Positions 1 to 19,943 of a stretch of 39,214 bases of DNA are shown here, piece by piece; the stretch's first letter is position 1, and every line of letters starts with the position of its first letter. A program made the translations under genes and the position numbers. The notes under the pieces were generated by a model. The model was not told the DNA's origin and did no database searches. It worked only from the letters and a program-made list of their open reading frames with translations. Where the stretch lies: the sequence record SRR20825006_369. One strand, 5' to 3'.

Positions 1-1443
1 CCCCTGCACGAACCAGCCGGGGTTTTGCGGCGTGTGATAAAGCCAAAGTCGACGGCCTTCGCGGGTCTCGATCCGCCAGTAATCGCGCACGCCCGAACGC
101 CACGCCTCATCCGGCAGCCACCATTCCGGTGCGATGCGTTCGGGGCCGATGGCGCGCCCGGTGGTGAGCGACATGCGGCGCCAGCGAAACCGCACAGGCG
201 GCTCCGCGCTGTATCCTGCAATCGGTTCCGGTGGAAACAGGTGCAGGGGACGCGGGCGCAGGTAGGACCATGCGCTGTCGGGTGTGCTGAAGGCGGCGGG
301 GGCGATGGCAAAGCTGCGCTCCGGGATGTGGCTGTCGGCGGGGAGGAAGCGTTGTACGTTGTCCAATCCGATGCGGGTACCGATGCGGGTGATCAGGTCG
401 TTGAGCTGATCAGGGGAGGTTTGCGCGCTGCCGATCTGTTGCACGGGGAGCGGTTCGACCTGTGTGGCCTCAAGCCGGATCTGGTCAATGCCAAAGCCCG
501 CGTCCACGTCCTCCACGCCACGTTCGAACAGGGGCAAAATCCGGTGCGGGTCCCGCATGGGGGCGGCAAGGCGCAGCTCGACTTGTTGGCTGCCCTGATC
601 GACCCGGCGCAGGGTGAGGGTCAGGCGACGCGCGCCCATTTCATGACGGTTGAGCTTATCGCAGAGCGGGGTCAGAAGTCGGGCGGTGAGGCCCATCACG
701 TCCTCTGTCAGACCGACGGGCTCGGGCAGGCTTATGCGTGTCGCAAAGCTTGGCGGTTCGCTTTCGGGCATGACGGGTTCGGGGATCGACCCCATGGCTT
801 GATCAAGATGGAGCAGCAGATCAGGGCCGAACCGACGGGCCAAGGGGGCGCGGGCGGCCTCCGCCAGATCGCCAATGCTGCGCAGGCCAAGACGTTGCAG
901 GGCAGTGACGGTGGTGTCTTCAAGACGGAGCGCGGCCACCGGCAGATCGGTGAGGGCTTCCTCTCCCGCGCCATAATGCGCATAGGCCCAAGCCGCACCT
1001 CGGGTCTCGGCGCAGCCCAAACGGAGCGTCAGTCCGGCGCGCATCGCGCGGCTCTGAATATCCGCCAGCATCTCCGCTTCGCCGCCCCAAAGATGGGTCG
1101 ATCCGGTGACATCCAGCACCAGCCCATCCACACCATCGCGTCCGACCCACGGACAATAGTGCGTCGCCCAGCGGCGCAGCGTGGCCAGGAAGCGGGCGTC
1201 GAGATCGGGGCGCGCGGGCTGACTGATCAGATCGGGGCAAAAGGCGCGGGCATCGGCGAAGCTCATGCCGCGCGTCAGGCCGAGCCGTTCGGCGGTCTCG
1301 TTGAGACAATAAATCCGTTCGGTGTTGTTCGACTTAAGCGTGATCGCGAAAGGACCATCGACAGGACGTGCGCGCAGAACCCGGTCACTCGCGAACCGGG
1401 GAAACCACATGCACACGACGCGCTTTTTGATCCCATCGAACAT
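1..1443 (-). CDS. imuB: Y-family DNA polymerase-like SOS mutagenesis protein ImuB (last few codons run off the window)
   Basis: Not in the ORF track because there is no stop in the window. The minus strand from ATG 1443 reads MFDGIKKRVVCMWFPRFASDRVLRA and ends GRRLWLYHTPQNPGWFVQG at base 1, matching typical ImuB termini. Overlaps the imuA 3' end. Confidence 0.9.
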   Translation of the reverse strand, partial: MFDGIKKRVVCMWFPRFASDRVLRARPVDGPFAITLKSNNTERIYCLNETAERLGLTRGMSFADARAFCPDLISQPARPDLDARFLATLRRWATHYCPWVGRDGVDGLVLDVTGSTHLWGGEAEMLADIQSRAMRAGLTLRLGCAETRGAAWAYAHYGAGEEALTDLPVAALRLEDTTVTALQRLGLRSIGDLAEAARAPLARRFGPDLLLHLDQAMGSIPEPVMPESEPPSFATRISLPEPVGLTEDVMGLTARLLTPLCDKLNRHEMGARRLTLTLRRVDQGSQQVELRLAAPMRDPHRILPLFERGVEDVDAGFGIDQIRLEATQVEPLPVQQIGSAQTSPDQLNDLITRIGTRIGLDNVQRFLPADSHIPERSFAIAPAAFSTPDSAWSYLRPRPLHLFPPEPIAGYSAEPPVRFRWRRMSLTTGRAIGPERIAPEWWLPDEAWRSGVRDYWRIETREGRRLWLYHTPQNPGWFVQG

Positions 1444-1936
1444 TCCAGGCACCCAATGTTCCTGATTTGTTCCTTTTAATTTCCCATCGCATCAGAGTCG
1501 AGTCTTCCTCTGCGGCATCGAAGACCGGCGTGGCTCGCCAACGGGTGTCGGTCGCATTGGACCCCATGCCTTCGGGAATGATACAGAGCCCCGTGGTGCC
1601 GCCCGCCTTGGCCGCGAGTTGCAACCGCCGTCCCTCGCGCAGGTTCAGCGGACGGGTGATCTCGAGGACGACAAAGGGCAGCGCGCCGTCTTTGAGCGCT
1701 TCTTCGGCCACGGCCAGCGCATCGGTCTGATCCTTGGGGCGGGCCAGCAACAGAAGGGCCGGGTCGAACATCGGCAATAGCCCCTGCGGGGTGAGCGTGT
1801 CCGACAGCCAGCTTTCCCTGATCCACAGGCATGCCCCCGCAGCGGCCATGGCGGCAAAGCTCATGGAACCGGGGCCATAGACCTCATGAACCCGCGCACG
1901 GCGCAAGGGGAAGACAGTGTGAAAATCGACTCGCAT
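1385..1936 (-). CDS. imuA: SOS mutagenesis protein ImuA (RecA/SulA-like)
   Basis: RARVHEVYGPG, DALAVAEEALKDG and GRRLQLAAKAGG motifs. Start set at ATG 1936, just downstream of the LexA box. Confidence 0.88.
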   Translation of the reverse strand: MRVDFHTVFPLRRARVHEVYGPGSMSFAAMAAAGACLWIRESWLSDTLTPQGLLPMFDPALLLLARPKDQTDALAVAEEALKDGALPFVVLEITRPLNLREGRRLQLAAKAGGTTGLCIIPEGMGSNATDTRWRATPVFDAAEEDSTLMRWEIKRNKSGTLGAWNVRWDQKARRVHVVSPVRE

Positions 1937-1941
1937 AATGG

Positions 1942-1956
1942 GAACGTAGCAAGAAC
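1942..1956 (-). promoter_or_regulatory. Alphaproteobacterial LexA (SOS) box GTTC-N7-GTTC
   Basis: Plus strand gaac-gtagcaa-gaac. It overlaps a minus-strand promoter TTGCCG(1971-1966)-17 nt-TACGTT(1948-1943). Confidence 0.9.
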
Positions 1957-2117
1957 ATCGGCGTGCGGCAATCAGGCTGCGATGGGAAGCGATGTCCAAC
2001 ATATAGATCGGCGTCAAACAGAGCTGACACATCCCGGCACACATGGTACGCAGACCCATGACTTAGATTTCCATCTCGCTCGCACGCCAACACGGACTTC
2101 TCCGTGACCAGTGTCGT

Positions 2118-2423
2118 GTGCCGATGAAAGGAAAATCTATGGATCGTTCTAAGCTTCCCCACCTCCAAGGCCGTCGTTTCGATATTGAGACACTGCAATA
2201 CGACGCGTTGAGATTGGCGCGACAGGCGGACAAAGGGCCGACGTTTTTGCGTCACCATGGTAGGATTGCCTATGTCGTCATGACAGAAGACATCTTCGAT
2301 CAACTCTGGCCCGATCCGCGCAGAGCGTGGAGCGTTGATGAAATGCCGCTGCACATTCTCCAGCTTTTAGAGCAGAGCTTGCAGGACGGGTTGTCGTCGA
2401 GACCGGAAGTTTCAGATATTTAA
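2118..2423 (+). CDS. Phd/YefM-like antitoxin-fold protein (apparently orphan)
   Basis: ADKGPTFLRHHGRIAYVVMTEDIFDQL resembles the Phd/YefM core. Start may be ATG 2139. Confidence 0.5.
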   Translation: MPMKGKSMDRSKLPHLQGRRFDIETLQYDALRLARQADKGPTFLRHHGRIAYVVMTEDIFDQLWPDPRRAWSVDEMPLHILQLLEQSLQDGLSSRPEVSDI

Positions 2424-2425
2424 GG

Positions 2426-2828
2426 CTCATATGTAATGAATGTGACGCCGAAGTGGCGCATGTCGCGGACCTCACCGGTATCGCGTTCGACGCACGGCGT
2501 TTCGATACTCCGTTCCTCGATGGGAACGGCTGGTTTCGGCTTGGCTTGTGTCGTAAGCGATAATCGCGCAGGTCTGCGCAACGGTCCGGTGAAAACGGCG
2601 CTTTTGGGAGCGGGGGCTCAGGTGGTCGATGTCAGAGCGTATCGCTTGGGCGACACGCCCTTCGTCGAACGGATGTGGAGCACGATGGAAAGCCAGGTCA
2701 TCAATTTGCTTCATGGCTACACGGGGCGTAAGGCGGGCCATCTCAAGGGGGACGATGCCAAGAAAAACGTGGTGATCTTGCGCGAGGACCTCTTTCGCCT
2801 GATCACGCGCTATCTGATCGTCGAATAA
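2426..2828 (+). pseudogene. Fragment of a TnsB/TniA (Mu-like DDE) transposase, possibly preceded by a TniQ-like fragment
   Basis: VVSDN...PFVERMWSTMESQVINLLHGYTG matches the D...E region of TnsB-type integrases. Only ~100 aa remain, truncated at both ends. Confidence 0.6.
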
Positions 2829-2858
2829 ACTCGGGCCTATTCAGACAGTGTCAAAACG

Positions 2859-2881
2859 TATGGAAAATTAGAATTTCCATA
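2859..2881. promoter_or_regulatory. Perfect inverted repeat TATGGAAA-N7-TTTCCATA, candidate operator
   Basis: Seen directly in the AT-rich region upstream of the secretion operon. Confidence 0.4.
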
Positions 2882-3053
2882 AGAGTGAAACTTTAGATTC
2901 CGAAATAATCTCAAAGTTAAACAAAAACTTAATTCGGGCAGAGATGACAATCTAACGCGCTATTTTTAATCTTAAGAACATCCCTTTACGCGAATGTGTT
3001 CCGGTCTCTTCCTGCGTGGTGTCGTAGCCTGACGGAAACGCGTGGAGAATATC

Positions 3054-3608
3054 ATGAACATCCGACTTAGTGCCATAATTTTGGCGATTCCAACGCTTTC
3101 TGCGTGTGGACAGAGCTTGAGCCTGACCATGCAGGATCCGTACTGCATAGCCGATAAGGCAGGGAAATCAGTCGAAGACTCCTTCTTTGTCGTCGATGGC
3201 GAATACTATGTTTTGAGCGACACCTATGTCGCGTCGAATGGCAAAATGACACAATATCCGGACGAATGCCCAGTAACGAATTTCTACGTCGTGCCGGCGG
3301 TGCGCCTTTCCGATGGCAGCGTGCGGTCTACGCAAAGTGTTCCAAACAATATTCCAGCACCGGCTGGCACTCCAGAGATTGTTGCTGAGAGCGCAGAAGC
3401 AGGAACCGCACAGGCGTCCGAAGTGGTTTCTGGTGGGACAGTGGCGCAGAGTGCAAGTACCGGAAACGTGTCTGTATCTGAAGTGAGTATGGAAGATGCG
3501 CCCAATGACACTGGAAAGGACGGAGACGACGCAGCTGTGACGGCGGGCAGCATCACGATCCACCGTGATGGTAGCGTTACAACGCCCAATCTTGGGCGCG
3601 TAAAATGA
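3054..3608 (+). CDS. Putative lipoprotein, first gene of the CsgG/HfaB operon
   Basis: RBS GGAG, lipobox LSAC, two further Cys and a low-complexity C-terminal half. Overlaps the next gene by 4 nt. Confidence 0.75.
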   Translation: MNIRLSAIILAIPTLSACGQSLSLTMQDPYCIADKAGKSVEDSFFVVDGEYYVLSDTYVASNGKMTQYPDECPVTNFYVVPAVRLSDGSVRSTQSVPNNIPAPAGTPEIVAESAEAGTAQASEVVSGGTVAQSASTGNVSVSEVSMEDAPNDTGKDGDDAAVTAGSITIHRDGSVTTPNLGRVK

Positions 3609-4117
3609 AACAACTCGTTCTCGGCCTTTCTCTGCTTCCATGTCTCGCATGGGGCCAAACCTATAGTACGTCTGGACAGAATTGGTCGGGAAGCTATGCG
3701 TTTCCGAGCGCATCAGACCGTAGCCTCGTGTTGCAGCAAGCGCAGGTGATCAACGACGCCGAAAACCCGACGGCTGCGGCACAAACGAACTACTACATTA
3801 CAAACGATAACCGCACTGGCTACGTTGAGGTGACAACGGATGGTGATGTCACGACCGATTTGCAGATTGGTGACGAAATCGGCCAGCAGACCTATGCTGT
3901 TGGATCTCTAAACACCGGCACGACGGAGGTGTCGGTGGAGGGCGATGGCAACATCATTACCGCAGACAACACGGCCGACAACAGCGGCTGTATTGATGCG
4001 TCTATCTTGTCATCCTTGCAGACTCCTGAAGGCGACGCCGCAACGGATGTGTCGTCTCTTTCGGTCCTTGATCTTGCCGATGCGCTCGCTGCTTTTGCAG
4101 CGGGAAAATGTAATTGA
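3605..4117 (+). CDS. Secreted HfaA-like / curlin-like beta protein
   Basis: Sec signal ending AWG-Q. TYAVGSLNTGTTEVSVEGDGNIITADNTADNSG resembles the HfaA C-terminal strands. Lies directly upstream of the CsgG/HfaB gene. Confidence 0.7.
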   Translation: MKQLVLGLSLLPCLAWGQTYSTSGQNWSGSYAFPSASDRSLVLQQAQVINDAENPTAAAQTNYYITNDNRTGYVEVTTDGDVTTDLQIGDEIGQQTYAVGSLNTGTTEVSVEGDGNIITADNTADNSGCIDASILSSLQTPEGDAATDVSSLSVLDLADALAAFAAGKCN

Positions 4118-4136
4118 TCTTGTGTTTGGGGGCTAC

Positions 4137-5432
4137 GTGAGACCGTTTCCAGTCATCGCAAGTGTTGTGGCTCTCCTTTCAGGATGTGCCAGCCTTGGAC
4201 AGGCTGTGGCGCCAATGGATCAGGATGTATTCATGGTTGATGGGCCACCCGTCCGCCGTGTCGAGACTGCATATGACGACGCGCTTGCGTGCATTGGCAA
4301 CCGCGCACCGAGATCGCTGACCTTCGCCGTCGGTGCCATCAATGATGCGACCGGCAAAGAAAGCTATGCCGACGCAGGCAGCGGGAAAATGGTCACGCAG
4401 GGTGCAGGGGATATGATCCAGACCGCCCTGTTTAATGCAGGTGTGCAGGTCGTAAACCGGCGCGATCCGGCCATTGCGGCGACTGAGCACAACTGGGGTA
4501 TCCGAGATATTACGTCGATGAAGCCGGCGGATCTTTTCATCACGGGAAGTATCAACAGTCTCGATTTTATTCCAGGAGCCGGGGCGTCTGTGACCGTCTC
4601 GGGAGTTGGGCCGAAAGCGCGGCAGAACCGTTTGTTGGTGGGAATGGACCTGGCCATGACCAATGCGCTGACCGGGGAAATTGTCGCAAATATCGCAATT
4701 CAAAAACAACTCGTTGGCAAAGAAATTGGCTTTGCGATTGGTCGGTTCTTTGACACGAGCCTCGTTGATATTTCGGCAGGCGCAATGGAACGCGAAGCCA
4801 CCAATGCTGTGTTCCGGCAGATGCTGTACTACGGTGTATATCAGCTTCTTTTACAAGCAAGTGACGCGGCAGAAAGTGCTGGCGAATGCAATGCAAAGCT
4901 GACTGCGACAATTGCAGAAGACTTGGTCTGGGAAGATCCGGCTGGGCGCGCATCCTTGCGGGCAATTGCCTCAGAGGTAGAGGCGGCTCGTCCGCCTTCC
5001 GAACAAGAAGTCGCCGAGATGCGTGCAGAAATGACGACAGCCGCTCCGGTTGAGCTGTCCGCCGAGGCACGCAAACTTGCCAACAACGTTACGACACAGG
5101 CGGCACGCGCCATCTCGATGTTTGATACTGCCGTGTCGGCGAAAAATGCCCAGGCCGCGCAAACAGCCTTTGAGAAGGGCAAAGTCTACCTGTCCATTGC
5201 CATTCGCGATCTGCGCGCCGGGGCCAAGGTGGGTTTGACTGGACCCGTAGGCGATGCCGCCGCGACGATTGTCGAACAGGCGATCCGCGCAGGCTCAGCC
5301 GCCGAAATTGCGCTCGCAGTCAAAATTGCTCCGAAGGGTGAGGAAGAGGCTGTGATCGCGCCCGAAACGGCGACGGATCCCGCGTCACCGTCCAACCCGG
5401 CTAAACCATCAAACGTGGAGGGAAAGCCATGA
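4137..5432 (+). CDS. CsgG/HfaB-family outer-membrane lipoprotein secretion channel with an Ala-rich C-terminal extension
   Basis: Start set at GTG 4137, lipobox LSGC. FAVGAINDATGK, VTQGAGDMIQTAL, VQVVNRRD and ITGSINSLDF...VGMDL are CsgG/HfaB motifs. Confidence 0.88.
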   Translation: MRPFPVIASVVALLSGCASLGQAVAPMDQDVFMVDGPPVRRVETAYDDALACIGNRAPRSLTFAVGAINDATGKESYADAGSGKMVTQGAGDMIQTALFNAGVQVVNRRDPAIAATEHNWGIRDITSMKPADLFITGSINSLDFIPGAGASVTVSGVGPKARQNRLLVGMDLAMTNALTGEIVANIAIQKQLVGKEIGFAIGRFFDTSLVDISAGAMEREATNAVFRQMLYYGVYQLLLQASDAAESAGECNAKLTATIAEDLVWEDPAGRASLRAIASEVEAARPPSEQEVAEMRAEMTTAAPVELSAEARKLANNVTTQAARAISMFDTAVSAKNAQAAQTAFEKGKVYLSIAIRDLRAGAKVGLTGPVGDAAATIVEQAIRAGSAAEIALAVKIAPKGEEEAVIAPETATDPASPSNPAKPSNVEGKP

Positions 5433-5580
5433 TGCATCCTTCTACATCCAGTTTTCTTTGCGAGACCCGCAAAGAAAGTTCTGTGGTCATACACCGCAGC
5501 TCAAACGGGGCCCTCGAACATGCCCTATTTAAGGACTGCCTGTTCTCGAGGGAAGAACAGGCACAAACGAGGACATCACT

Positions 5581-6453
5581 ATGAAAAAGTTTCTTGCGAC
5601 CACCGCTGTGGTGCTGATCGCCACGACCGGCGCAGCGTCTGCACAATCCGTTCTGGAGCGCGTTTTGGGCTCGCTCGACGCGGCGACCACCACTGAACTC
5701 AACGGCACTTTCGCCAACATCGCCGAAAACATCGGTGGCAATGACGTCACTTATCTTAACGAGGCCGGCGTTGCCTTTACCGAAGCTGAATTCGAACTGC
5801 TGGTCGATGATGAGCTTGGCCAGATGCTCGACGATGGCTATGTTTACTACGACACGACCACTGACAGCTACTACACCAACGAAGGTTTGGGTTTTGAGCT
5901 CGGCTCGATCATCGAAGCCAAAGCTTATGCCGAAGCACAGATGCTTAACTCCGCTGGCTACACCCGTGAAGTTGGCCTTGGCGGCATTGTTGACGGTTCG
6001 ATCACCAACGTCATCGAAGGCGTGACCAGCGCTATTGCTGATGCAAGCCAAAGCGCGACCGCCGGTCTCGACACAGTTGCTTATGAATTCAACTTGCCGA
6101 CTTATGATCTTGGCGCGCTGTCCACAACCGCACTTGGCGCTGTGAACACCGGCGACATCACCCTCGGTGTGAACTCCACCGTGGATGACGCAAAAACCAC
6201 GTCGACACAGGCCGTGTCCTCCGTCATGGAACAGCTCGGTGGCTCTTCGGGCACCGGCGCGCTTGTGCTTAACATCGCATCCAACATGACCGGTGTGGAT
6301 GGTTCGATCTCCAACACGATGAACAACGTGAACGGTGCTCTCGCCTCTGCATCGACAACGGCACTTGGTGCGGTCAACACCGGCACAATCACATCCGGTG
6401 TGAATGCTGCTGTTCAGGGCATCGTCGGCACGTCCGGCCAGTCCGGCCTGTAA
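5581..6453 (+). CDS. Secreted two-repeat protein, candidate major fibre/amyloid subunit
   Basis: RBS GAGG and signal peptide ASA-Q. Two copies of NIAxN...VDGSI...STTALGAVNTGxIT. Rich in G/A/S/T/N, with no Cys, Trp or His. Confidence 0.85.
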   Translation: MKKFLATTAVVLIATTGAASAQSVLERVLGSLDAATTTELNGTFANIAENIGGNDVTYLNEAGVAFTEAEFELLVDDELGQMLDDGYVYYDTTTDSYYTNEGLGFELGSIIEAKAYAEAQMLNSAGYTREVGLGGIVDGSITNVIEGVTSAIADASQSATAGLDTVAYEFNLPTYDLGALSTTALGAVNTGDITLGVNSTVDDAKTTSTQAVSSVMEQLGGSSGTGALVLNIASNMTGVDGSISNTMNNVNGALASASTTALGAVNTGTITSGVNAAVQGIVGTSGQSGL

Positions 6454-6482
6454 GCTTTAGGCTTGTTCGCATTATAAGAATT

Positions 6483-6504
6483 GGGATGGCAGTCATGCCA
6501 TCCC
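6483..6504 (+). terminator. Stem-loop after the major subunit gene (terminator or mRNA stabiliser)
   Basis: GGGATGGCA-gtca-TGCCATCCC, 9-bp perfect stem without a clear U-tract. Confidence 0.55.
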
Positions 6505-6645
6505 TCCAAACTATCAGATGTGGCACAATGTTCGCCCAAAGGCAGGGCGTACCGCCGAGTTTGGTCTTGGGCATATAAGGCGTTCGAATACGTTTGGGTT
6601 GATCGAGATAGCCCTCATGAGACGCAGAGCGAAGGAGTTGAAATC

Positions 6646-7665
6646 TTGCATAGTTTTCGCAGCTTTGTCTCTCGTTGCTTGCACAGGATGTGTCGCGGTC
6701 TGTCGCGCCGCCTGAGCCACAGCCTACCCAAAGTTGCTTTGAAACGAAGCAGATACCCCTTTGAGAGGTTTCAAAACCTGTGCGTCATTGCGATCTGTGT
6801 CCTTTCAGGACTGTCGTATCCGTACCCTGCGTCAGCAGAGACTCGTCTTGAACGTATTTTTGCCGCTTTGGCTGAAACAGGGTTTGGTGCTGACGTCTTG
6901 TTTATGGTCAATGTGGCCGAAAACACGTCAAGTTTTATGAGCCAACCGGCACGTCTCAAATCCGGACAAACTGTCGTCATCGGATATGATAGCGTTGGTG
7001 CGCCCGTCATCGCGCAATCCGACGATTTTGGCGTGACTGTGACGGCGGCGCAGGCATTGGAGCTTGAGCGTGGTCTACCGCCTGGTTTCTATCCGACCGG
7101 CAGCGGGCTTTTTTCCATTCCCGCGGGTGCACAGCTGTCCCTGTACGAAGCGGACCGGGACGGGCAGGCGATTGCAACAGCGCGCGAACTTGTTTCGACG
7201 CGGATTGATGGCCAGATCTTGACGGTTATCGGACTTTCCCCAAGGTTTGCCGAATTTGGGGACCTGGCGTTGGTTGCAGGACAAAGCAATGCCTTGCGTG
7301 CCATCACTCAAATTGATGCACTTCAAACGACGGTACTTGGCGCGGTGAACAACGGGATCGCTGTCACAAACGTCGCTGCCAATTACGGTACGGATGTTTT
7401 GGTCCCAACGGATCTTATCGCCTCAAAAGTCTCGCGTGGTGCCAACATGAGCTATATGCAGGCGGCTACGGATCAGCTCGACGCGGTGCATCTGGCGCAA
7501 GTTGTCACGACGGGTCCCAGTGTTTTGATGAATTTGGCGTCGAATGATATGGATATAATCGGTAGCATCCGTCTGCGGGTGTCTGATCAATCGGGCGCAG
7601 CCCTCAAGGTTGTCACGACGGCAATCGGTGCTGTGAACAGCGGGATTATCTCGAATACGAACTAG
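6646..7665 (+). CDS. Secreted paralog of the 5581 protein, candidate minor subunit
   Basis: ASA-ETRLERIF, NVAEN, TTVLGAVNNG, NLASN, TTAIGAVNSG. Start uncertain: TTG 6646 follows AAGGAG; 6688 and 6739 are alternatives; the ORF opens at 6481. Confidence 0.8.
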   Translation: MHSFRSFVSRCLHRMCRGLSRRLSHSLPKVALKRSRYPFERFQNLCVIAICVLSGLSYPYPASAETRLERIFAALAETGFGADVLFMVNVAENTSSFMSQPARLKSGQTVVIGYDSVGAPVIAQSDDFGVTVTAAQALELERGLPPGFYPTGSGLFSIPAGAQLSLYEADRDGQAIATARELVSTRIDGQILTVIGLSPRFAEFGDLALVAGQSNALRAITQIDALQTTVLGAVNNGIAVTNVAANYGTDVLVPTDLIASKVSRGANMSYMQAATDQLDAVHLAQVVTTGPSVLMNLASNDMDIIGSIRLRVSDQSGAALKVVTTAIGAVNSGIISNTN

Positions 7666-7687
7666 GGCGAGTCTTCAGGCCGATTGG

Positions 7688-10375
7688 TTATAAACACTTT
7701 GACAATAGCAATTGTGCAAGCCCTTGTAGGCGCACAATTTCTGCTTTGCGGCAGCATTTTTCGATCTCACCCAAAAGGCGGCCGAGTTTCGGGTAACCAA
7801 GAAACAGCAAACTCCCCGCAACAAAGTGCGAAAATTGCGCAATCTCATCAAGGTCTTTTGCCCCCGGGTCATTTTGCAGCATGCCCCGTAGCATGTCTCC
7901 AAGTGTTTCCACCTCTGTTTTGGCGCGATGGGTCAGTTCGACCAAATTGGGATTTTCCTCAAAACTCGGGAGCGGATTGGAAAGTCGTTCGAACTCGAAC
8001 TCCTCTTGCTGCTCGACATCGTCCATCGCGTCGCGTTCTGAAATGACTTTTTCAATGTGCGACCGAAGCTGATGCATGGTGAACGGCTTGTGGAGAATAG
8101 AATCGATGCCGCTTTCAAACAGCTCAAGTGTCTCTTCCATCTTCATGCTCGCCTGCGCCGTCACGGCAATAATGCAGGCTTTCGAGGATCTTGACCCCAG
8201 TCGTATGATGGATGAGGCATCTAAGCCTGACATGTTCGGCATATTCAGATCGGTCAAGATAAGATCGTAGGCTGTCTCACAAGCCTTTTGAACCGCTTCA
8301 AACCCATCAATGGCGGTGTCCACATCATAGCCGATTTGTTCGGCCATTGCCTTGAGCAATGTTCTATTGGTGGGGTGATCTTCGACCAACAAGACATGTC
8401 CTTTTGGTGCGCCGGTATGTTTCACATCCTCGCCTGCGGTTGTGTCTGGGGCTGGCGTGCTATTTGGCGTCTGATCGGTGCGCCCAGACATTTTCCCCAA
8501 TGGGATATTCGCGGGCATGTCGTCTTCGGATTGTTCCTGTTGCGCGGAAGAGGGCACCCGGATCGCGTCATTCTGCTCATCGTGTACAAAAGAGGGGATC
8601 GTGAAACAAAACCGACTGCCACTTCCCAGAGTACTTTCCAATGTGATTGTCCCGCCCATGAATTCCACGGATCTCTGGACAATTCCGAGGCCTAGACCGG
8701 TGCCGGGCAAAACCGGTGCAACTTCGTCGGATAGAGAATAGAAATCTTCGAAGATGCGCGCTTGATCTGCCTGGCTTATGCCAATGCCCGTATCAATCAC
8801 CTCGATACGTGTTTCCCATGCACTATTTACCAACGAGTTTGTGCCGAGCACAGTGATCGAGCCAGCATTTGTAAACTTGATGGCATTGGAAATGAGGTTG
8901 TAGATCGCATTTGAAAACGCGCGCCGGTATCCGATGTTTTCATCCGGACCCCGCCAGTTGAGTGTCAGGGCGTTGCCCTTTGATTTGGCCAATGCCTCGA
9001 GCTGCTCACATATCTGCTGTACTGTGTTGCGAGGGTTATAAGGCTGCGGGGTGAGCTGAGATGACATGGCATCGTGCCGCGCAATGTCGAGAACATCGTC
9101 AATTTGCTCAAGAGCTGTTGCCGCGGCATCGCGTGATATCTGAATATATTCGCGACGTTTTACGGCTTCCGTCTCGGTTTCTGCGAGATCAAGAGCCGCG
9201 ACAACGCCATGCAGAGGCGTCCGCATTTCGTGACTCATCGTCGCGAGAAAACGGCTCTTTGCAGACGCATCACTGCGTGCGCGGGCCAACGCTGTGCGTG
9301 CTTTTAGGCGTGCATTCCATTCTTGAGAAGTGTCACGCACGAAGCCGATTAAGACCGGTTGCCCGTCCATTCCCGTCTCTCTTACGATGCTAAGAGATGC
9401 GGGAAATGTTTCTCCATTGAAGCGACGGGCCCTTACATTTGAACGATGTAAGGCGTTGTTGCCGCTTTCTTTGCAGGCAAACATGATGCGGAGTTGTTTT
9501 TCGAAAGGTGCCCAGCTTTTTTTGGGTGTCAGGTGCTTTAAAACGGATTGTCCATAGGCCTCTTTGCGTTGACATCCAAACATGGCTTCGGCAGCAGCAT
9601 TGAACTCTATGACTTTAAAATCACAGTCCATTACGATGATTGCATCGTGAGAGACCTCAAGTAGTTTTGCGAGATAGGATGACAATTTTTTTTGAGTGAG
9701 ATTGGTGGTTGCGATCCGCCTCAAAAGAAACACCACGGATATGAAGCTCAGGAGAAGTAGACCGATTAGAACAAGAGAATAAAAGAGATAGTTGTTCAAA
9801 GATGAATGCAGGACGCTGCGTCTCTCTTCTTGAGAGTCGATTGCCGACTGCAGAGCCGACAACGCAAAGATCCGGCTAAGCGTTGCGGCATATTCGATTA
9901 AATCGAAGATTGCTCGCACATCATCGACCGTTTTCAAACGCCCTGCATCTATTTCAATTGCAGCCTTGTCACGCAGTGTGGTCAATTCCGATAGGGCGTC
10001 ACGGGCATCTTGTTCGACGGGAAATGTTCGCAACCTTTGTGCAACTGTGTCCACGCGCGCATAAAAGATGTCGAAACGCGTCTCAATTTCGAGATGGGTC
10101 TCGTCGGATATCTGAGACCCGTCTTGCGTTTCCATTAAGGCTTGAGCAAGGGCTAGCTGAAGGCGATGCAGTTCCACTTCGACCTGAACGAAGTTCCAGG
10201 TTTCGCTGTCAGAGCGTGCAAAAGAAAAGGAATTAACTTTGCGGGACAAGTCAACGGATATGGTCAAGAGGATCAGCAGGACGAAGCTGAAAATCGTTAC
10301 TGAAACGTACATTTTCCGTCGTGTCAGGCGCCAATGCGGAGACACGTTCAGAAATTTCGGAATGTGGCGTTTCAT
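7688..10375 (-). CDS. Hybrid sensor histidine kinase (TM-periplasmic-TM, PAS, HisKA, HATPase, REC, Hpt-like C-terminus)
   Basis: MSHEMRTPLHG, NLISNAIKFT, DTGIGI, GTGLGL, LILTDLNMP and C-terminal SHFVAGS. Confidence 0.93.
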   Translation of the reverse strand: MKRHIPKFLNVSPHWRLTRRKMYVSVTIFSFVLLILLTISVDLSRKVNSFSFARSDSETWNFVQVEVELHRLQLALAQALMETQDGSQISDETHLEIETRFDIFYARVDTVAQRLRTFPVEQDARDALSELTTLRDKAAIEIDAGRLKTVDDVRAIFDLIEYAATLSRIFALSALQSAIDSQEERRSVLHSSLNNYLFYSLVLIGLLLLSFISVVFLLRRIATTNLTQKKLSSYLAKLLEVSHDAIIVMDCDFKVIEFNAAAEAMFGCQRKEAYGQSVLKHLTPKKSWAPFEKQLRIMFACKESGNNALHRSNVRARRFNGETFPASLSIVRETGMDGQPVLIGFVRDTSQEWNARLKARTALARARSDASAKSRFLATMSHEMRTPLHGVVAALDLAETETEAVKRREYIQISRDAAATALEQIDDVLDIARHDAMSSQLTPQPYNPRNTVQQICEQLEALAKSKGNALTLNWRGPDENIGYRRAFSNAIYNLISNAIKFTNAGSITVLGTNSLVNSAWETRIEVIDTGIGISQADQARIFEDFYSLSDEVAPVLPGTGLGLGIVQRSVEFMGGTITLESTLGSGSRFCFTIPSFVHDEQNDAIRVPSSAQQEQSEDDMPANIPLGKMSGRTDQTPNSTPAPDTTAGEDVKHTGAPKGHVLLVEDHPTNRTLLKAMAEQIGYDVDTAIDGFEAVQKACETAYDLILTDLNMPNMSGLDASSIIRLGSRSSKACIIAVTAQASMKMEETLELFESGIDSILHKPFTMHQLRSHIEKVISERDAMDDVEQQEEFEFERLSNPLPSFEENPNLVELTHRAKTEVETLGDMLRGMLQNDPGAKDLDEIAQFSHFVAGSLLFLGYPKLGRLLGEIEKCCRKAEIVRLQGLAQLLLSKCL

Positions 10376-10878
10376 TCTGACGTTAAAACCCTAATTTCAA
10401 CGAGTTGCCAGACGGCGGCTCCATACACAGGTTCTGTTTGATATTCTTTGCGTTTGTCGAAGGGATACATGATCCACAGAGGGCCTTTCTCCCGGAGAGA
10501 AAACGGCATCCCATCGATCCTGTTGGCAATGATTGGATAGGTGTCATCAATCAAAGCGGGGCTAATATCAACCTTGTAGTCATTGGCTCCAACGAACGTC
10601 ATTGAATTTTGTTCGTGGATTCCCACCATGGAAAGGACGCTGGTAAGAGAAGGGCCACTATAACTTGGACTCCCTTCTGTCCAAAGCGAAGATGTTTGGA
10701 AGGATTGCTGTTCCAACTGCAGAAGCATGTCGTCCGTAATCTCGAAACGTTCATCTGTCCCTTCTATAGAAATTGTCAGAAGCACATCCTGAGCACAGAG
10801 CATTTGCGGCGATAGCGCGAAACAACCTGCGAAAGCAATCATTTGGGCAGCTTTAAGAGTAAAACTGTGTGGGAACAT
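10372..10878 (-). CDS. Periplasmic molybdopterin-oxidoreductase-like accessory protein coupled to the kinase
   Basis: Signal peptide, then TSSLWT, YSGPSL, ANDY, REKGPLWIMYP and VWQL motifs. Overlaps the kinase by 4 nt. Start set after RBS AAGGA. Confidence 0.8.
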   Translation of the reverse strand: MFPHSFTLKAAQMIAFAGCFALSPQMLCAQDVLLTISIEGTDERFEITDDMLLQLEQQSFQTSSLWTEGSPSYSGPSLTSVLSMVGIHEQNSMTFVGANDYKVDISPALIDDTYPIIANRIDGMPFSLREKGPLWIMYPFDKRKEYQTEPVYGAAVWQLVEIRVLTSE

Positions 10879-11083
10879 GGTCATTTCCTTGAGATAAAAC
10901 GCTTTTAGGGAGATTTTCACCAAAAAAGTTTTTTATACACTGCGCAAAAGTAAAATAGCATCATCTTTAGTTTCCACGTTATTCCACCAAGGATTTATTT
11001 GCTCTTAATAGTTTCTGCATATGGCGGCGGCGCTAAAATTCATACAAATAGTAAAAAATTGTATATCCTATAGAGAAAATCCT

Positions 11084-11755
11084 ATGCACAAACCTCAAAG
11101 GCAGTCGAACACAGAGATGCAACAGCGCATGGTTTCCGTCCTTATTGCCGACGATCATAAGCTGATCTCAGAGGCTTTGAAGATTATTCTGGTTGAAGAG
11201 GGAGATTTTTCCGTCGAAACGAGCGTCTCATTGCAAAGCACCCTCGACGTTCTGCGCGCACACCCAAAGTCTTTTGATGTTGTGATGCTTGATATCTCTA
11301 TGCCGGGAATGGAAGGTTTGCGATCTGTAAAGCAGGTCGTAGATGCCACCCATGAGGGATCAGTTGTCATTTTTTCTGGAACGGCTGACGATGACTTCGT
11401 CTGGCAGGCAATTGAGATCGGGGCAAAGGGATTTATCTCCAAAGGGCAACCTTTTCGCAGTTTCGCCGCGACACTCAGATTGATCGCCGATGGCAACGAG
11501 TTTGTCCCACTGTCATTGTCGAGAAGTGTTAAAAACGCAACCAAAGGCGCAGACGGACCCGATGAGCAAGAGCGGCGCATTCTCAAGCTGGTTGCAGAAG
11601 GAAAGACAAACAAGGAAATTGCGTTCGAGCTGAATTCGAGCGAGGTCGCAATTAAAATGAAAATGCGGTCGATATGTACGAAACTAGATGCCAAGAACCG
11701 CGCACACGCTGCTATCCTTGCGCAAAGACATGGGCTCATAACGATTGAAACGTGA
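11084..11755 (+). CDS. NarL/FixJ-family response regulator (REC + LuxR HTH)
   Basis: VLIADDH, VMLDISMPG, GKTNKEIA...NRAHAA. Start 11084 or 11117. Confidence 0.92.
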   Translation: MHKPQRQSNTEMQQRMVSVLIADDHKLISEALKIILVEEGDFSVETSVSLQSTLDVLRAHPKSFDVVMLDISMPGMEGLRSVKQVVDATHEGSVVIFSGTADDDFVWQAIEIGAKGFISKGQPFRSFAATLRLIADGNEFVPLSLSRSVKNATKGADGPDEQERRILKLVAEGKTNKEIAFELNSSEVAIKMKMRSICTKLDAKNRAHAAILAQRHGLITIET

Positions 11756-12130
11756 GCAGGGCTAAGAACAATCAATTGTTTCGACTATTCAAATCGGCTC
11801 ATATGAACAATGGACATGACGGAGATCGCCCCGAGGTCGCGTTTGTCAGAGATCTGTGGCATGTCTTTCACCTGGATGAGTAACGGGTCAGTGACTGCCC
11901 TTAACTTATTCCGACAAGTCGTAAATTTCTTATTTATATCTGTCACATGCCTCGAAACAAGCAGCTACGATAATCACGACCAAATTTGCAATAAGCAGGC
12001 CCAATGAAAGCGAAAATAGAACATTGAGGCCGATGAGTATCATCACGAGGGATGTAAAGATGAATGCAACTAGAGCCAAAATCCCAAAAAATATCATATT
12101 TCACGTCTTCTATTTCGTTACGAACCAATC

Positions 12131-12670
12131 TTACGGGTGACTTCGGAAATCGCGTTGTCCACGCTTTAAGGATTGCACAACCGATCGCGTGGGCGCGTGT
12201 GTAAGTGCAGAGTTGAGGCGTTGAACCCAAACGCGATTGTTCACGGGCGCTTGCAGCAGTGCGAGTTCAAGGCACGAGTAGGTAACTGGAAGTCGGAGAG
12301 AAACATCTGCGAGAAATAATCTGTGCGTTCCGAATTCATCTGTGCTGAAATCTGAAGATACCAGAATTGTTGCCACGTCCGGGAACCGCCCCCGCATTTC
12401 CCTAATCCTGTCATACTGAGCGGCGATGCCGCCGAAACTGTCGACGTCGATGAACGCAAAATTGATCCCAGGAATGGCGTCGAGACACCGCATGAACTTG
12501 CTGTAATCTTCGCAACAGGTCACGGTTGCGTCGTTTTCCACCAGCATAATTGGCAAGGTGTGCGCCAGAACTTTCGATTGGCTCAGGAACAGACATTTTG
12601 CATCCATCCCGTCGAAGATACTGAACATGATTTGCCACCTGCATTTGAATTTAAATCTTTGTTCCCTCAC
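12131..12670 (-). CDS. Stand-alone degenerate receiver-like domain protein
   Basis: FAFIDVD...IREMRGRFPDVATILVS...LRLPV follows the REC beta3-beta5 pattern, with R-L-P in place of K-P. Start uncertain. Confidence 0.6.
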   Translation of the reverse strand: MREQRFKFKCRWQIMFSIFDGMDAKCLFLSQSKVLAHTLPIMLVENDATVTCCEDYSKFMRCLDAIPGINFAFIDVDSFGGIAAQYDRIREMRGRFPDVATILVSSDFSTDEFGTHRLFLADVSLRLPVTYSCLELALLQAPVNNRVWVQRLNSALTHAPTRSVVQSLKRGQRDFRSHP

Positions 12671-13883
12671 ACTTACAGCGGATTGATCCCTGTAGTGTTC
12701 GCCCGAAAGGTGAATGAGATTCTCTTTAGTTGTTCGGCCACTCCAATGATCGCCTTCGCTAAAGAGGGGCCCGCAAAATCGGACAGTGGCCTATGCTGCA
12801 TCCTAAATCTTTGAAGGCTACAGGCGGCAAAGCGCGGAAATTCTGCAGATCGGTTTAAGACAAGGTTGCTTTGGCGGCATTGCGAACCTGTCTCAAAAGA
12901 GGGGACCACTTCACTCATCGCAAACAAAACGGTCAGCCCATAAGGTTTTGCCCGACCAGTATGTGTAGCCAGCATTGGGACATTTGCCGGTGATGCATTC
13001 TGATCGGGCAGGCAACACGAGATATGTATTTGCTGCGCGGTCTCGGGGGGGTGATAAGCACAGCGCCTACCCGAAGTCTCGTGTGTGATACGGGCGGTAT
13101 CTCAGCAAATATGAGGTGGTTTGCGCGCGATTCCAAAGTGTCTTTCGATTGGCGCGGGATCGAAAGTTGCATTCGGGTTCCACGACCTCGGCACGCTGGC
13201 CCAGCCGAAGCAGGTTCGTGGTTGCGCCTGATCGACGTCGGTAAAGAGATCGTCCGACCTGCCGAACGGTCCTCCCGCGACACCCTGAGCGTCTGATCAG
13301 GTGCCTGCGCAAGTTTCTGAAAGGGTGAGAATAGTTCAGGGCCAAGTCTGGTTGGACGTGCTGCATGGTCACAGAAAAAGACCGGCTTAAATGCGATGAT
13401 GAGTGCCGGGGTGGGCAAGCATAGCGTTAAAATCATCATTCAAGTTGGGCGATGTGATGCCCCTTTGAGTTGATGTATGCGCAAAAGTTTCCATTTCCTC
13501 ATAGCGCTTCTCTAAAGGGGATAGGCATGTACTAAAGAGAATTTGATTTGAAGGGCACCAAGTGATTTGAATGAAAGCGTGTTCAGCGAGTTTAAATTTG
13601 CTGTGCGCGACCTCACAGCTCAACACCTTCTCCACGCCAATTTGGCGTGGTTTTTTTTAATCAGGGGACGAAAATATTGAGTATTCGCTGTGGTCCCAAG
13701 TCGACCTTCGTGGGGGGCGCCTAATACGTGGAGATTACAGGCGCTTTGATCGGGAACCACACCTAACGCTACGGCTCAAAGGCATGTCCATGCAAGATCG
13801 GGGGCCCTTGAAAACGTGATGCAAGTCGAGCGGTCCTGAAAACTGCGCCCATGAAATCAACAAGAGGTTCCAAGAGTTTCACT

Positions 13884-14933
13884 ATGTCCGTAAAGATCAA
13901 AAAAGGAAAAGGTATCTTGTTTGATGCGGTGCCTGACAGTGGCCAAGTTATGGTGAAGGTCGCGCCACATGGGCGCCCACTTTACATTTGGCCTAACCGC
14001 CTTGGATTTCCAGAAAGTCTCCTGCCGAAGATTAAAAAACAGTCTGTTCCCTTCCTCTACCCACCGCAGACTCCGGTTGAATACAAAGGTGGCAGCTGGA
14101 TTGTAAACATGTGTGCGGACGCAGACGAATATCGCAATGCACTCATTGGTCTTGACCGGGCCTTTGGAGACAAAATCCCTATATTTAATCATCCTCGGGC
14201 TGTGGCGATGACACGTCGAGATCTCAGCGCAAAACGTTTGGCAGGGATACCCAACCTGGTCGTTCCTAAATGTGTGCGTTTTATGGCTGATGAGAACAAC
14301 AGTTTTCAGAGAGCTTTTGAAGCAAACGGGTTCAATTACCCGGTGCTCGTGCGTCCGGCTAAATCTCAAACTGGCCGCGATCTAGTCAAAATCGACAATC
14401 CGTTCGACTGGCCAAAAGTTTACAAGACGCATTGGCAAGGTAAGTCCCACTTCATGACCCAATACGTCGATTACTCAAACACATCTGGGGACTTCATTAA
14501 GTCTCGGATTGTTTATGTCGGCGAGCGCATGTTTGTGCGACATGTAAAGCGTGCGGAAAACTGGCGCATCCACAACCAGACCGCATCCAGCAAAACAACG
14601 GATGAAGCGTGGGAGGCCTCGATCTCAGAGCAATTGATGAGTGATCCTGTTTTTCACAACATGCTCAGCGAGGTGCCAGTTCGTGTGAAACTGGATTTTT
14701 TTGGCCTAGACATTGGTGTCGATCTTGAAAATCGGCGGGCGATACTTTTCGAAGCCAACGCTGCGATGTCTATTTTCTTTGCCACAGGCGCTGATGAGCG
14801 CTCGCAGGCGAGGGCGACGCGCCTTCAACATCCGATTGTGCGTGCTCTGGAGGAACATTTTGCGACCCCCAAAAACTGGCGATCCGGCGCGGACATCGGC
14901 GAAGAGCCCGTCGAAAGGATCTTTCAGTCATGA
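13884..14933 (+). CDS. ATP-grasp (RimK-like) ligase
   Basis: IFNHP, YPVLVRP, FMTQYVD, LDFFGLDIG and LFEANAAM. Alternative start 13851. Confidence 0.8.
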   Translation: MSVKIKKGKGILFDAVPDSGQVMVKVAPHGRPLYIWPNRLGFPESLLPKIKKQSVPFLYPPQTPVEYKGGSWIVNMCADADEYRNALIGLDRAFGDKIPIFNHPRAVAMTRRDLSAKRLAGIPNLVVPKCVRFMADENNSFQRAFEANGFNYPVLVRPAKSQTGRDLVKIDNPFDWPKVYKTHWQGKSHFMTQYVDYSNTSGDFIKSRIVYVGERMFVRHVKRAENWRIHNQTASSKTTDEAWEASISEQLMSDPVFHNMLSEVPVRVKLDFFGLDIGVDLENRRAILFEANAAMSIFFATGADERSQARATRLQHPIVRALEEHFATPKNWRSGADIGEEPVERIFQS

Positions 14934-15793
14934 GTGTCAGAGACGAACGCGCATTGTTTACAGGCGAGACTCTGCAGGCTCTGGCGGAAACAGCGCAAGA
15001 CATCCTGCAAGATGCGCTAAATGGGTGCGCGCAAGACTGTAAAGGGTTTCACGGATCGTGGCCGTTTACACAGCTTTTCAATCTCCTCCCCACCACATTG
15101 CGTGACAAAGAGTTCATCGCAGATCAGACCGCAGCCGCCGTTGGGGCCGGCGCGCGCAAATTGGTTATTTCAGGCGCTGCCGACGATGGCATTCTAAAAG
15201 CAATGCTCTCTAAATTGCCGTCGCCACCGTCAGATTTGGCGGTGCATGTCGTTGATCTATGCGACACCCCTCTTAAAGCAAATGTGCGGACTGCAAAGCG
15301 GCTTGGAGTCAATCTTTCCATAGCCAAAGCAGACCTTCGGGCTGGGTTGAACGTGAAAGCAGATGTGATTGTTGCTCACAATCTTCTGCCTTTTTCATCT
15401 CCCGAAGATAAACAGGTGGTGGTGCAGGCTTGGGCTGATGCTCTCAGTTCGGGTGGATTGCTATGCGCCGTGAACCGGATCAAACCAATGGCCGCCTATG
15501 GCGCACCACGATTTCCATTGGCCGTTCATGATGAGATGGTCCAAAGGATTTTGGACCTGCAATCGATCTCCCCATATCGCGATCATATTACGCCAGAGCT
15601 GTTGGCCGGCCTCTTCAGGGAAGCTCTGGAGACCTCGAAGATGTGGTATTTTCGTTCAAAAGACGAAGTGATCACGCTGTTGGAGGCGGCCTCATTCTGC
15701 ATCCTTGGGACCCATACTTACAGCCGAAGAGGGGAAGTCCCCTCGCATATGCCTGACAACGAAACCATCAGAATCTCAGCCGTTCGCTCGTAG
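14930..15793 (+). CDS. Class I SAM-dependent methyltransferase-like protein
   Basis: LVISGAAD (motif I), VHVVDLCDTPL, ADVIVAHNLL and LSSGGLL. ATGA overlap with the ATP-grasp gene. Confidence 0.75.
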   Translation: MSVRDERALFTGETLQALAETAQDILQDALNGCAQDCKGFHGSWPFTQLFNLLPTTLRDKEFIADQTAAAVGAGARKLVISGAADDGILKAMLSKLPSPPSDLAVHVVDLCDTPLKANVRTAKRLGVNLSIAKADLRAGLNVKADVIVAHNLLPFSSPEDKQVVVQAWADALSSGGLLCAVNRIKPMAAYGAPRFPLAVHDEMVQRILDLQSISPYRDHITPELLAGLFREALETSKMWYFRSKDEVITLLEAASFCILGTHTYSRRGEVPSHMPDNETIRISAVRS

Positions 15794-15824
15794 ATCCAAC
15801 CAAACAAGATCCAAAGGAGATAAC

Positions 15825-19929: not shown

Positions 19930-19943
19930 TACTTGGTGTCAAA

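Follow-up and report, generated by a model that had tools for sequence, protein, structure and literature searches.

A CsgG/HfaB-family gene cluster with strain-variable, non-curlin repeat cargo in marine Rhodobacterales: a candidate surface-fibre system

The gene cluster and its CsgG-family gene

The DNA analysed here, a stretch of 39,214 nucleotides (nt) from sequence record SRR20825006_369 (hereafter the window), is of marine Rhodobacterales origin and carries on its plus strand, between positions 3054 and 7665, five co-oriented open reading frames (ORFs), which we call g1 to g5. They were taken from an ORF list with translations, and signal sequences and lipoboxes were read directly from the translations. 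A previous examination of this DNA, made without database searches and referred to below as the sequence-only reading, had described five co-oriented genes for exported proteins; all five are present, and each translation has a signal sequence or lipobox. The genes are the following.

3054-3608, plus strand: g1, a lipoprotein of 184 amino acids (aa) with the N-terminus MNIRLSAIILAIPTLSAC and the lipobox LSAC
3605-4117, plus strand: g2, a small secreted protein of 170 aa with the N-terminus ...LLPCLAWG/QTY; its start overlaps the stop of g1
4110-5432, plus strand: g3, a CsgG/HfaB-family lipoprotein of ~440 aa with a GTG start and the lipobox ...VVALLSGC; it overlaps the g2 stop by 8 nt
5581-6453, plus strand: g4, a protein of 290 aa with an ATG behind GAGGA and the signal peptide ...TGAASA/QSV
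6646-7665, plus strand: g5, a protein of 339 aa counted from a TTG, with AAGGAG 8 nt before the TTG and the signal-like sequence ...PYPASA/ETR

The longest ORF covering g3 starts at 3945, and the GTG at 4110 was taken as its start. No Pfam or NCBIfam family was matched, even at E <= 10, by g1, g2, g4 or g5, nor by orf183, a secreted protein encoded beyond g5. A Pfam scan of 33 window ORFs found no curlin, CsgE, CsgF, Fap, flagellin or polysaccharide-synthesis family, which bears out the statement that no recognisable csg accessory, curlin, Fap or polysaccharide genes lie in the window. In the literature, judged by titles and the beginnings of abstracts, we found no description of the g1-g5 cluster or of the g4 cargo family.

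By its sequence, g3 is a CsgG-family protein. The Pfam model PF03783 (CsgG; cut-off 20.8 bits) gave it 36.2 bits, and the match ran from profile position 9 to 206 of 210; the same model matched the g3 ortholog of G001, the nearest genome compared (98-99% identical to the window over almost the whole length), where it is the sole CsgG-family gene. The best NCBIfam model for g3 was HfaB (NF037935), with 93.6 bits in two stretches, far below the cut-off of 300 bits. The G001 ortholog reached 56.5 and 40.6 bits on this model; 14 of 401 genomes of the class scored above 360 bits. On the NCBIfam equivalog model for CsgG of the E. coli type, g3 scored 14.5 bits. Both the Pfam match above cut-off and the rank of HfaB among the curated models agree with the earlier placement of the channel gene in the CsgG/HfaB family. 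Residues 111-233 of g3 could be aligned without large gaps to residues 85-214 of the solved E. coli CsgG (E 0.0037), a stretch that we take to contain both membrane hairpins. The lipobox cysteine ends the g3 signal peptide (N-terminus ...PVIASVVALLSGC, as read from the translation), and the protein has a C-terminal extension of ~130 aa. Judging from these sequence features, g3 is presumably an outer-membrane secretion channel.

A quick maximum-likelihood tree of 39 rows, in which E. coli CsgG lies on a very long branch and makes the root and deep order unsure, placed 16 g3-type proteins in one clade with a support of 98 in the Shimodaira-Hasegawa-like approximate likelihood-ratio test (SH-aLRT). 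The 14 true HfaB proteins formed a separate clade (97), grouped with four intermediate HfaB-like proteins (96).

The genes g2, g3 and g4 were colinear in 16 of the 17 related loci with enough upstream sequence, so the cluster is no chance arrangement; the gene-neighbourhood analysis proposed with the sequence-only reading therefore found the cargo tightly linked to the channel gene across genomes. The g4 scan of the genome collection gave 14 loci, two of which were left out (L015, a spurious 18-residue match, and L007, which has no upstream sequence). Eleven of the remaining 12 were colinear in the order g2-g3-g4, and the twelfth, L013, is an orphan fusion of a passenger to the g4 core (L013:6179-7552). 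This gene stands alone; the g3-type gene of that genome (46% identity, E 4.5e-92) lies on a different contig. Within the same taxonomic family, the g4 profile matched four of 201 genomes, all four with colinear g2-g3-g4, and a g3 search of the same 201 genomes gave six strong matches (E <= 2.6e-58) that included all four g4-bearing genomes. The fifth of these, in genome G570, lies with genes for a lipoprotein, a g2-like protein (E 6e-22) and a divergent g4-like protein (E 4.6e-11); the sixth is a fragment at a contig edge. The cluster is not present in G569, the other genome of the genus, and the distribution of g4 is patchy.

The g4 cargo family and its partner proteins

A search of a clustered protein collection, in which the best 7999 candidates were scored, returned at least 668 relatives of g4 at E <= 0.001. 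An exhaustive search of the cluster representatives (50% identity) found 178 clusters, of which 59 matched at E <= 1e-30. Celeribacter, Sinisalibacter, Yoonia and Nioella are among the genera from which relatives are reported. Among the matches listed, all were named 'hypothetical' except two Celeribacter entries named 'Flagellin' by UniRef. We regard this name as unsupported, since neither g4 nor g5 matched a Pfam flagellin family at E <= 0.1.

In an alignment of 75 g4 sequences, the invariant or nearly invariant blocks were SVLERVL and NGTFANIAEN near the N-terminus, IDGSITN, LVLNxASN, and two copies of STTALGAVNTGxIT(L/S)GVN. The signal peptide of the window's g4 is followed by a conserved N-segment at residues 22-52 (SVLERVL...NGTFANIAEN), a hypervariable domain at about residues 53-133 (nt ~5735-5975), the stretch IDGSITN...STTALGAVNTGDITLGVN, and a second full module at residues 213-290. 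Residues 131-212 aligned with residues 213-290 at z 9.4, a score reached by none of 500 shuffles, and the N-segment aligned more weakly with the start of the second copy (z 3.0, reached by 5 of 500 shuffles). On the strength of these internal alignments, g4 is read as two copies of one module, the first of which is split by the hypervariable domain inserted at about residues 53-133. Of the 213 proteins with an SVLERVL-like motif, 185 have its start among their first 40 residues. The family is also depleted in cysteine: 226 of the 241 g4-family proteins of at least 200 aa have no cysteine after residue 30, and mature g4 has neither cysteine nor tryptophan and an isoelectric point (pI) of 4.05.

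The centre of g4 varies far more than its ends. Mean pairwise identity in the family was 0.61 over residues 22-52 and 0.59 over residues 134-285, against 0.17 in the centre, the length of which ranged from 1 to 219 aa and was at most 10 aa in five of the 75 sequences. The genome G001 is 99% identical to the window over positions 1-5738 and 5973-20000, with no alignment in between. Its g1 and g2 proteins are 100% identical to those of the window, g3 is 98.4% and g5 96.2% identical; the first 50 and last 155 residues of its g4 are nearly identical to the window's, while the centre is unalignable. Contigs from the sequencing runs X1, X3 and X4 likewise joined position 5660 to position 5992 with 310 different letters between. 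The centre of g4 has been replaced outright between strains that are about 99% identical around it. Larger rearrangements occur among relatives. N-terminal passengers of ~190-380 aa precede the core in P0133, P0145, P0155, P0249 and the L013 orphan, inserts of ~330 aa are found in P0160 and P0163, and P0235 has three tandem units.

We modelled g4 with AlphaFold2 on the 75-sequence alignment. The model had a mean predicted local-distance difference test score (pLDDT) of 75.4 and a predicted template-modelling score (pTM) of 0.51, and it was mixed alpha/beta. In it SVLERVL is helical and GTFANIAENIG a strand, the two signature motifs lie on long paired strands (174-189 and 251-266), and residues 199-221 are disordered. 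The insert was predicted confidently as an alpha/beta domain, the 10-residue blocks of residues 61-130 having pLDDT values of 80-94. A Foldseek comparison of the model with the Protein Data Bank (PDB) gave no related fold (best E 1.7). A VIA-align comparison with 48161 chains gave a best Z of 3.9 in rows confined to residues 53-133, so that it barely tested the conserved core alone. Searches of PDB sequences with g4 and with the g5 profile returned no match. A three-copy complex prediction of mature g4 scored 0.00 with the fold of the partner uncertain, which counts neither for nor against self-assembly. A tblastn search with g4 found no match among 72,556 plasmids, and a plasmid origin is therefore unsupported by the plasmid records searched.

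The genes g4 and g5 are paralogs. Their alignments matched in hhalign with 99.9% probability (E 7.5e-34, 242 columns), and this match, together with the internal duplication of g4 at z 9.4, upholds the earlier description of the two as paralogous repeat proteins. In its own alignment g5 has a separate conserved middle domain (GDxVVIGYD...GLYPxGS...LSLYE...RIDG) and two TT(A/V)(L/I)GAVNxG motifs. We found 18 homologs, all unnamed, and g5 lies downstream of g4 in L004, L005, L008, L010, L011 and L012. In many loci g5 is preceded by a further g4 copy, by a short form or by both. In the contig from run X4, g4 and g5 are separated by 2053 additional letters (at 6428-6592), probably one or two further paralog genes; further paralogs at this place would resemble the other loci with two g4 copies. 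Mature g5 lacks cysteine and tryptophan, like mature g4, and has a pI of 4.46. It is presumed to be a minor subunit or adaptor.

The small protein g2 has 24 homologs, all 'hypothetical', and their alignment contains two invariant cysteines, C129 and C169. It carries one motif resembling the g4 signature (YAVGSLNTG; TALGAVNTG in g4). This shared motif was the top hhalign match between the two but had a probability of 6%, and 802 of 1000 shuffles reached the observed pairwise score. The sequence-only reading had called g2 HfaA-like, a label that no profile test confirmed. g2 gave no match at E <= 10 to the HfaA model NF037934 (cut-off 50 bits), and in hhalign it matched HfaA (9 sequences) with 10% probability at the N-terminus only. 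Small proteins encoded beside other HfaB-like genes matched g2 with 16% (E 0.0016, 90 columns) and HfaA with 10%. It is backed by language-model leads only: in the ESM Atlas, g2 led to two clusters, one auto-named 'HfaA family' (0.94, 210 shared features) and one with PF27294 HfaA in every member (0.87, 183 shared features). The AlphaFold model of g2, built on 32 sequences, was unusable (pLDDT 52.3), and the search of PDB sequences with the g2 profile gave chance-level matches only (E 0.2 or worse). We consider g2 a candidate nucleator, anchor or periplasmic accessory factor and possibly a very distant relative of HfaA.

The first gene, g1, encodes a protein with a lipobox cysteine, a short segment with two cysteines and a low-complexity tail of serine, glycine, alanine and proline. 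A lipoprotein gene lies upstream of g2 in 10 other loci and in G570, with little sequence conservation; similarity to g1 itself was detectable in L002 only (33%). We regard g1 as a candidate accessory lipoprotein.

Adjacent regulatory genes and transcript depth

Three genes next to g5 encode a two-component system and a secreted protein, and three perfect inverted repeats flank g4.

7688-10375, minus strand: hybrid sensor histidine kinase with PAS, HisKA, HATPase_c, receiver and Hpt domains (Pfam)
10372-10923, minus strand: orf183, a secreted protein; 4-nt overlap with the start of the kinase gene
11021-11755, plus strand: response regulator with receiver and LuxR/GerE DNA-binding domains (Pfam), divergent from orf183 and the kinase gene
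5453-5477, no strand assigned: perfect inverted repeat with 10-nt arms and a 5-nt loop, 21 nt behind the g3 stop
5537-5563, no strand assigned: perfect inverted repeat with 10-nt arms and a 7-nt loop; it lies in the leader of g4 and immediately precedes the GAGGA ribosome-binding site
6483-6504, no strand assigned: hairpin, a perfect inverted repeat with a 9-bp stem including 6 G-C pairs, 30 nt behind the g4 stop

Homologs of the kinase adjoin the cluster in L004, L005, L006, L010 and L012, and in the same five loci homologs of orf183 adjoin the kinase. Regulator homologs adjoin the cluster in L005, L006, L010, L012 and L052; the match in L004 is weak (27% over 92 residues) and lies inside the receiver region of the kinase itself. 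The kinase and the response regulator presumably control the cluster, and orf183 is presumed to be a periplasmic partner of the kinase. From its sequence and position, the repeat at 5453-5477 is a possible terminator of g1-g3 or a possible regulator binding site, and the hairpin at 6483-6504 is a candidate attenuator or terminator separating g4 from g5.

Run X2 is marine metatranscriptome RNA sequencing available as contigs, the depths of which sum over organisms and cannot rank genes. Its depths over the locus were as follows.

g1-g3: 123.9
5499-5537, contig over the g4 leader upstream of the start: 4980
g4, conserved parts: 6009 (6008.6; contig ending at 6477) and 11505
g4, variable part matching the window: 214.9
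6448-7121, contig across the g4/g5 boundary: 59.7
further into g5: 11.8
kinase: 35.2

The high-depth contigs start at 5468 and 5544, with adapter letters as their loose ends, and one of them ends at 6477, just before the hairpin at 6483-6504. This hints weakly at strong transcription of g4 as a unit of its own. The earlier assignment of g4 as major and g5 as minor subunit fits the locus: g4 has its own leader and hairpin, its RNA depth in X2 points weakly the same way, and it is duplicated elsewhere. The paralogy of g4 and g5 is firm, and the division of roles is presumed.

Interpretation, competing explanations and genomic surroundings

We read the cluster as an uncharacterised type VIII-like export and display system that builds a variable surface fibre or coat and has an adjacent two-component system; we put the probability of this reading at about one half. 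All five products would enter the periplasm through the Sec pathway, g1 and g3 would be lipidated, and g3 would form a channel in the outer membrane. CsgG passes unfolded CsgA, and the cysteine-free, acidic proteins g4 (major) and g5 (minor) may likewise pass the g3 channel in an unfolded state; once outside, they would build a fibre, anchor or coat on the cell. The split core of g4, that is, the N-segment and two modules with the motifs 'NIAxN - DGSIxN - TTALGAVNTGxI', would be the buried or assembling part. The hypervariable domain would face outward and be diversified by cassette exchange, and in some relatives an N-terminal passenger would take its place. g2 might prime or anchor the assembly or serve as a periplasmic helper, g1 would be an accessory lipoprotein, and the hybrid kinase, orf183 and the LuxR-type regulator would switch the system on. 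In favour of this reading are the full-length CsgG-family match of g3, the linkage of g2, g3 and g4, the cargo-like traits of g4 and g5 (signal peptides, no cysteine), the conserved ends around an exchanged centre and, weakly, the signs that g4 is a strongly expressed unit with a good ribosome-binding site. The sequences establish which genes and families are present, their linkage, the paralogy, the modules, the allelic replacement and the lack of cysteine; passage through g3, exposure at the surface, polymer formation (a beta-arch polymer in the sequence-only reading), the parts played by g1, g2 and g5, and control by the two-component system are inferred.

Several observations weigh against this interpretation. 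The monomer model of g4 is middling in confidence and mixed alpha/beta, with no obvious beta-solenoid. The SVLERVL motif starts beyond residue 100 in 14 of the 213 proteins; it is not always N-terminal and therefore no simple N-terminal targeting signal like that of CsgA. The invariant cysteine pair of g2 sits badly with passage through a narrow channel, and the RNA depths come from the contigs of one metatranscriptome and are unfit for ranking genes. Finally, membership of the CsgG family is no proof of a pore: in Dueholm et al. 2012 (PMC3521004), only 171 of 601 Pfam CsgG matches lay in curli operons.

The cluster resembles curli in its CsgG-family lipoprotein channel, in having major and minor paralogous secreted subunits with internal repeats, and in the receiver plus LuxR/GerE regulator nearby, which is the architecture of CsgD. 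The motif that g2 shares with g4 recalls the relation of CsgB to CsgA, although the similarity is not significant. In contrast to curli, curlin repeats, CsgE and CsgF are missing from the window and from G001. The curlin repeat model PF07012 matched none of g2, g4 and g5 at E <= 0.1 and nothing in G001 at E <= 1; CsgE had no match in G001 at E <= 1, and the best CsgF match there (E 0.48) lay on another contig and was at chance level. g3 also differs by its 14.5 bits on the CsgG equivalog model. The cargo is made of long modules and a predicted folded variable domain rather than five short Q/N-rich strand-loop-strand repeats, and the regulator is partnered with a hybrid kinase. According to PMC3521004, csgC, csgD and csgE are missing from Alphaproteobacteria, in which csgH is frequent. 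Failure of g4 and g5 in the HfaD, HfaA and curlin profile tests supports the view of the sequence-only reading that the cargo is non-curlin, distinct and unannotated.

No Fap family was found among the 33 window ORFs in Pfam, and the channel is of the CsgG type. Flagellin offers an analogy only: g4 has conserved ends and a hypervariable, length-variable centre that differs between close strains. However, its conserved parts are predicted to be mostly beta strands rather than coiled-coil helices, no flagellin Pfam domain was found, and g4 and g5 adjoin a CsgG-type channel gene instead of a flagellar export apparatus.

CsgG-type channels are understood through two cargo sets, the curlins and HfaA/HfaD, yet the neighbours of most family members are unknown genes. 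Going further, the cluster might represent a third class of CsgG-type (type VIII) secretion beside curli and the holdfast anchor, a 'plug-and-display' fibre, which we put forward tentatively and as the less probable extension of the fibre reading. The split beta core would polymerise extracellularly, with passengers inserted between its first two strands or fused at the N-terminus. Swapping of these between strains by recombination would alter adhesion specificity or evade phages or grazers, and many marine Rhodobacterales would carry the system and express it strongly in the sea.

A very divergent Hfa system is the rival that survives best. In this case g2, g3 and g4/g5 would be HfaA, HfaB and HfaD in function and would tether a polysaccharide adhesin encoded elsewhere, as in Caulobacterales. 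As reference we took the true hfa loci from the 14 of 401 class genomes in which HfaB was above the cut-off. One of them, L028, has HfaA at 93.3 bits, HfaB at 404.4 and HfaD at 123.2 (NCBIfam). The rival is a live one because the order g2-g3-g4/g5 in the window mirrors hfaA-hfaB-hfaD in L028. The window's channel gene likewise lies between a gene for a small secreted protein and genes for larger secreted repeat proteins rich in threonine, serine, glycine, alanine and asparagine. HfaB is the best curated model for g3 (93.6 bits, against 14.5 on CsgG). The ESM Atlas leads point from g2 to HfaA (0.94, 0.87) and from g4 (0.85, 151 shared features) to two clusters with PF27277 HfaD in 70% and 52% of their members. 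There is also a weak chain of similarity from g2 through the small proteins beside HfaB-like genes (16%) to HfaA (10%).

However, neither HfaA nor HfaD models matched g2, g4 or g5 at E <= 10, the latter two having been compared with HfaD NF037936 (cut-off 100 bits), and none matched at the G001 locus. In the whole of G001, HfaD had no match at E <= 10, and the best HfaA match (E 0.76) was on another contig and at chance level. Profile-profile comparison gave 10% for g2 with HfaA, at the N-terminus only, and for g4 and g5 with HfaD 0.3% (5 sequences) and, with broader alignments of 11 and 8 sequences, at most 0.6%. The failing HfaD model is nevertheless weak evidence, because the model is narrow: it was above the cut-off in 3 of 401 Alphaproteobacteria genomes, with weak matches in nine more, as against 14 of 401 for HfaB. 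In the other holdfast genomes, the HfaD-like proteins (216-315 aa) reach no more than 20-50 bits. With so few genomes above the cut-off and such low scores for the other HfaD-like proteins, we conclude that HfaD is fast-evolving and under-annotated.

Further differences argue against an Hfa identity. g3 reaches 93.6 of 300 bits and falls in its own clade, apart from true HfaB and its sister group. The g4 family is marked by signature blocks of its own (SVLERVL, NIAEN, DGSIxN, TTALGAVNTG) and by a core of two modules, the first of them split by the hypervariable insert; exposed domains exchanged between strains are not known from Hfa proteins. Each locus of this type holds two to four paralogs, and a two-component system is linked to the cluster. 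The scan of the window ORFs recognised no polysaccharide genes, a result that concerns the window, as hfs genes were not searched in the rest of the genome. The cluster occurs patchily in Rhodobacterales (four of 201 family genomes, and not in the other genome of the genus), whereas Hfa is found in Caulobacterales. On balance we hold a divergent Hfa system to be unlikely, although it deserves to be kept in view. Another cargo set that looks like an unannotated CsgG/HfaB set of Alphaproteobacteria was seen in L035 (G387:C11:457000-472000), in a genome with five HfaB-like matches. Three tandem cassettes there occupy 15 kb, each with an HfaB-like lipoprotein of 278 aa, a secreted protein of 370-383 aa and a secreted protein of 174-202 aa with an 'RNRSLAAQF' motif.

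The next explanation is that g4 is a monomeric display scaffold, the core of which docks at or in the channel or the outer membrane, like CsgF on CsgG or an autotransporter anchor, while a single variable or passenger domain is displayed to act as adhesin or receptor. The core tolerates inserts of 1 to ~330 aa and N-terminal fusions of up to ~380 aa, and the model has its long paired strands at 174-189 and 251-266. In the ESM Atlas the first match of g4 (0.88) is a lead to a cluster auto-named trimeric-autotransporter-stalk-like ('YadA-like stalk'). An aromatic C-terminal residue marks outer-membrane barrel proteins, but g4 ends in ...GTSGQSGL, without such a residue. The several paralogs per locus (g4, its second copy, the short form and g5) are more like major and minor subunits, and the very high RNA depth of g4 relative to the channel gene, a weak indication, suits a polymer over a 1:1 partner. 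We judge a monomeric scaffold to be improbable, slightly behind the Hfa explanation.

Least likely, and in our view quite doubtful, is a non-pore envelope complex in which g3 is a scaffold of CsgG fold and its partners g2, g4 and g5 are retained in the periplasm or in vesicles. It would suit the small share of Pfam CsgG matches in curli operons (171 of 601 in PMC3521004) and the conserved cysteine pair of g2, typical of periplasmic folding. It would not suit the coverage of CsgG profile positions 9-206 of 210 by g3 or its alignment to solved CsgG over the presumed hairpin stretch. The scarcity of cysteine across g4-family proteins and the exchange of a folded domain from strain to strain likewise argue for an exported, exposed protein.

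What is new here is the modular, strain-variable g4 cargo family; the channel type was already known. The split core, the insert exchanged between near-identical strains, the passenger-bearing relatives and the hfa-like gene order all go beyond the sequence-only reading. The cluster gives an orphan CsgG-type channel a defined large cargo family with a clear signature, a modular design tolerant of foreign domains, and allelic swapping. Marine Rhodobacterales are important on particles, algae and plastics. Should the cargo form a surface fibre, these bacteria would have in it a structure for adhesion or antigenic variation that has gone unstudied. Such a fibre could also be a natural scaffold for displaying proteins outside Gram-negative cells. 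Should the cluster instead turn out to be Hfa in a highly diverged form, holdfast-anchor biology would reach beyond Caulobacterales, with a cargo shown to evolve fast.

The genomic setting of the cluster is itself variable. G569 matches the window only at 1-1958 (77%) and ~30660-39214 (64-82%), with ~38 kb of other DNA between, and the middle ~29 kb of the window has a G+C content of 0.43-0.60, compared with 0.61-0.66 at the ends. We therefore take the middle ~29 kb to be a variable genomic region that holds the cluster. Three ORFs of equal length (275 aa, at 19933, 28196 and 30953) proved to be mutually unrelated. Other features noted in the window are listed below.

1-2059, minus strand: an ImuA-like gene at 1385-2059 (NCBIfam 23.6 bits, below the cut-off) beside a long frame leaving the window start, probably belonging to an imuA-imuB-dnaE2 mutagenesis cassette
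13851-16805: three ORFs in a row (360, 287 and 366 aa) that have no Pfam family, directly upstream of a TctA transporter at 16852-18717
23872-27937: a DUF3047 protein, a second pair of histidine kinase and OmpR-type regulator, and a Sel1-repeat protein
30662-35742: a TamA/TamB pair (Omp85 and TamB)
37028-38258: a DUF5343 gene followed by a Swt1-like HEPN gene, with a G+C content of 0.42, resembling a small defence or toxin-antitoxin-type pair

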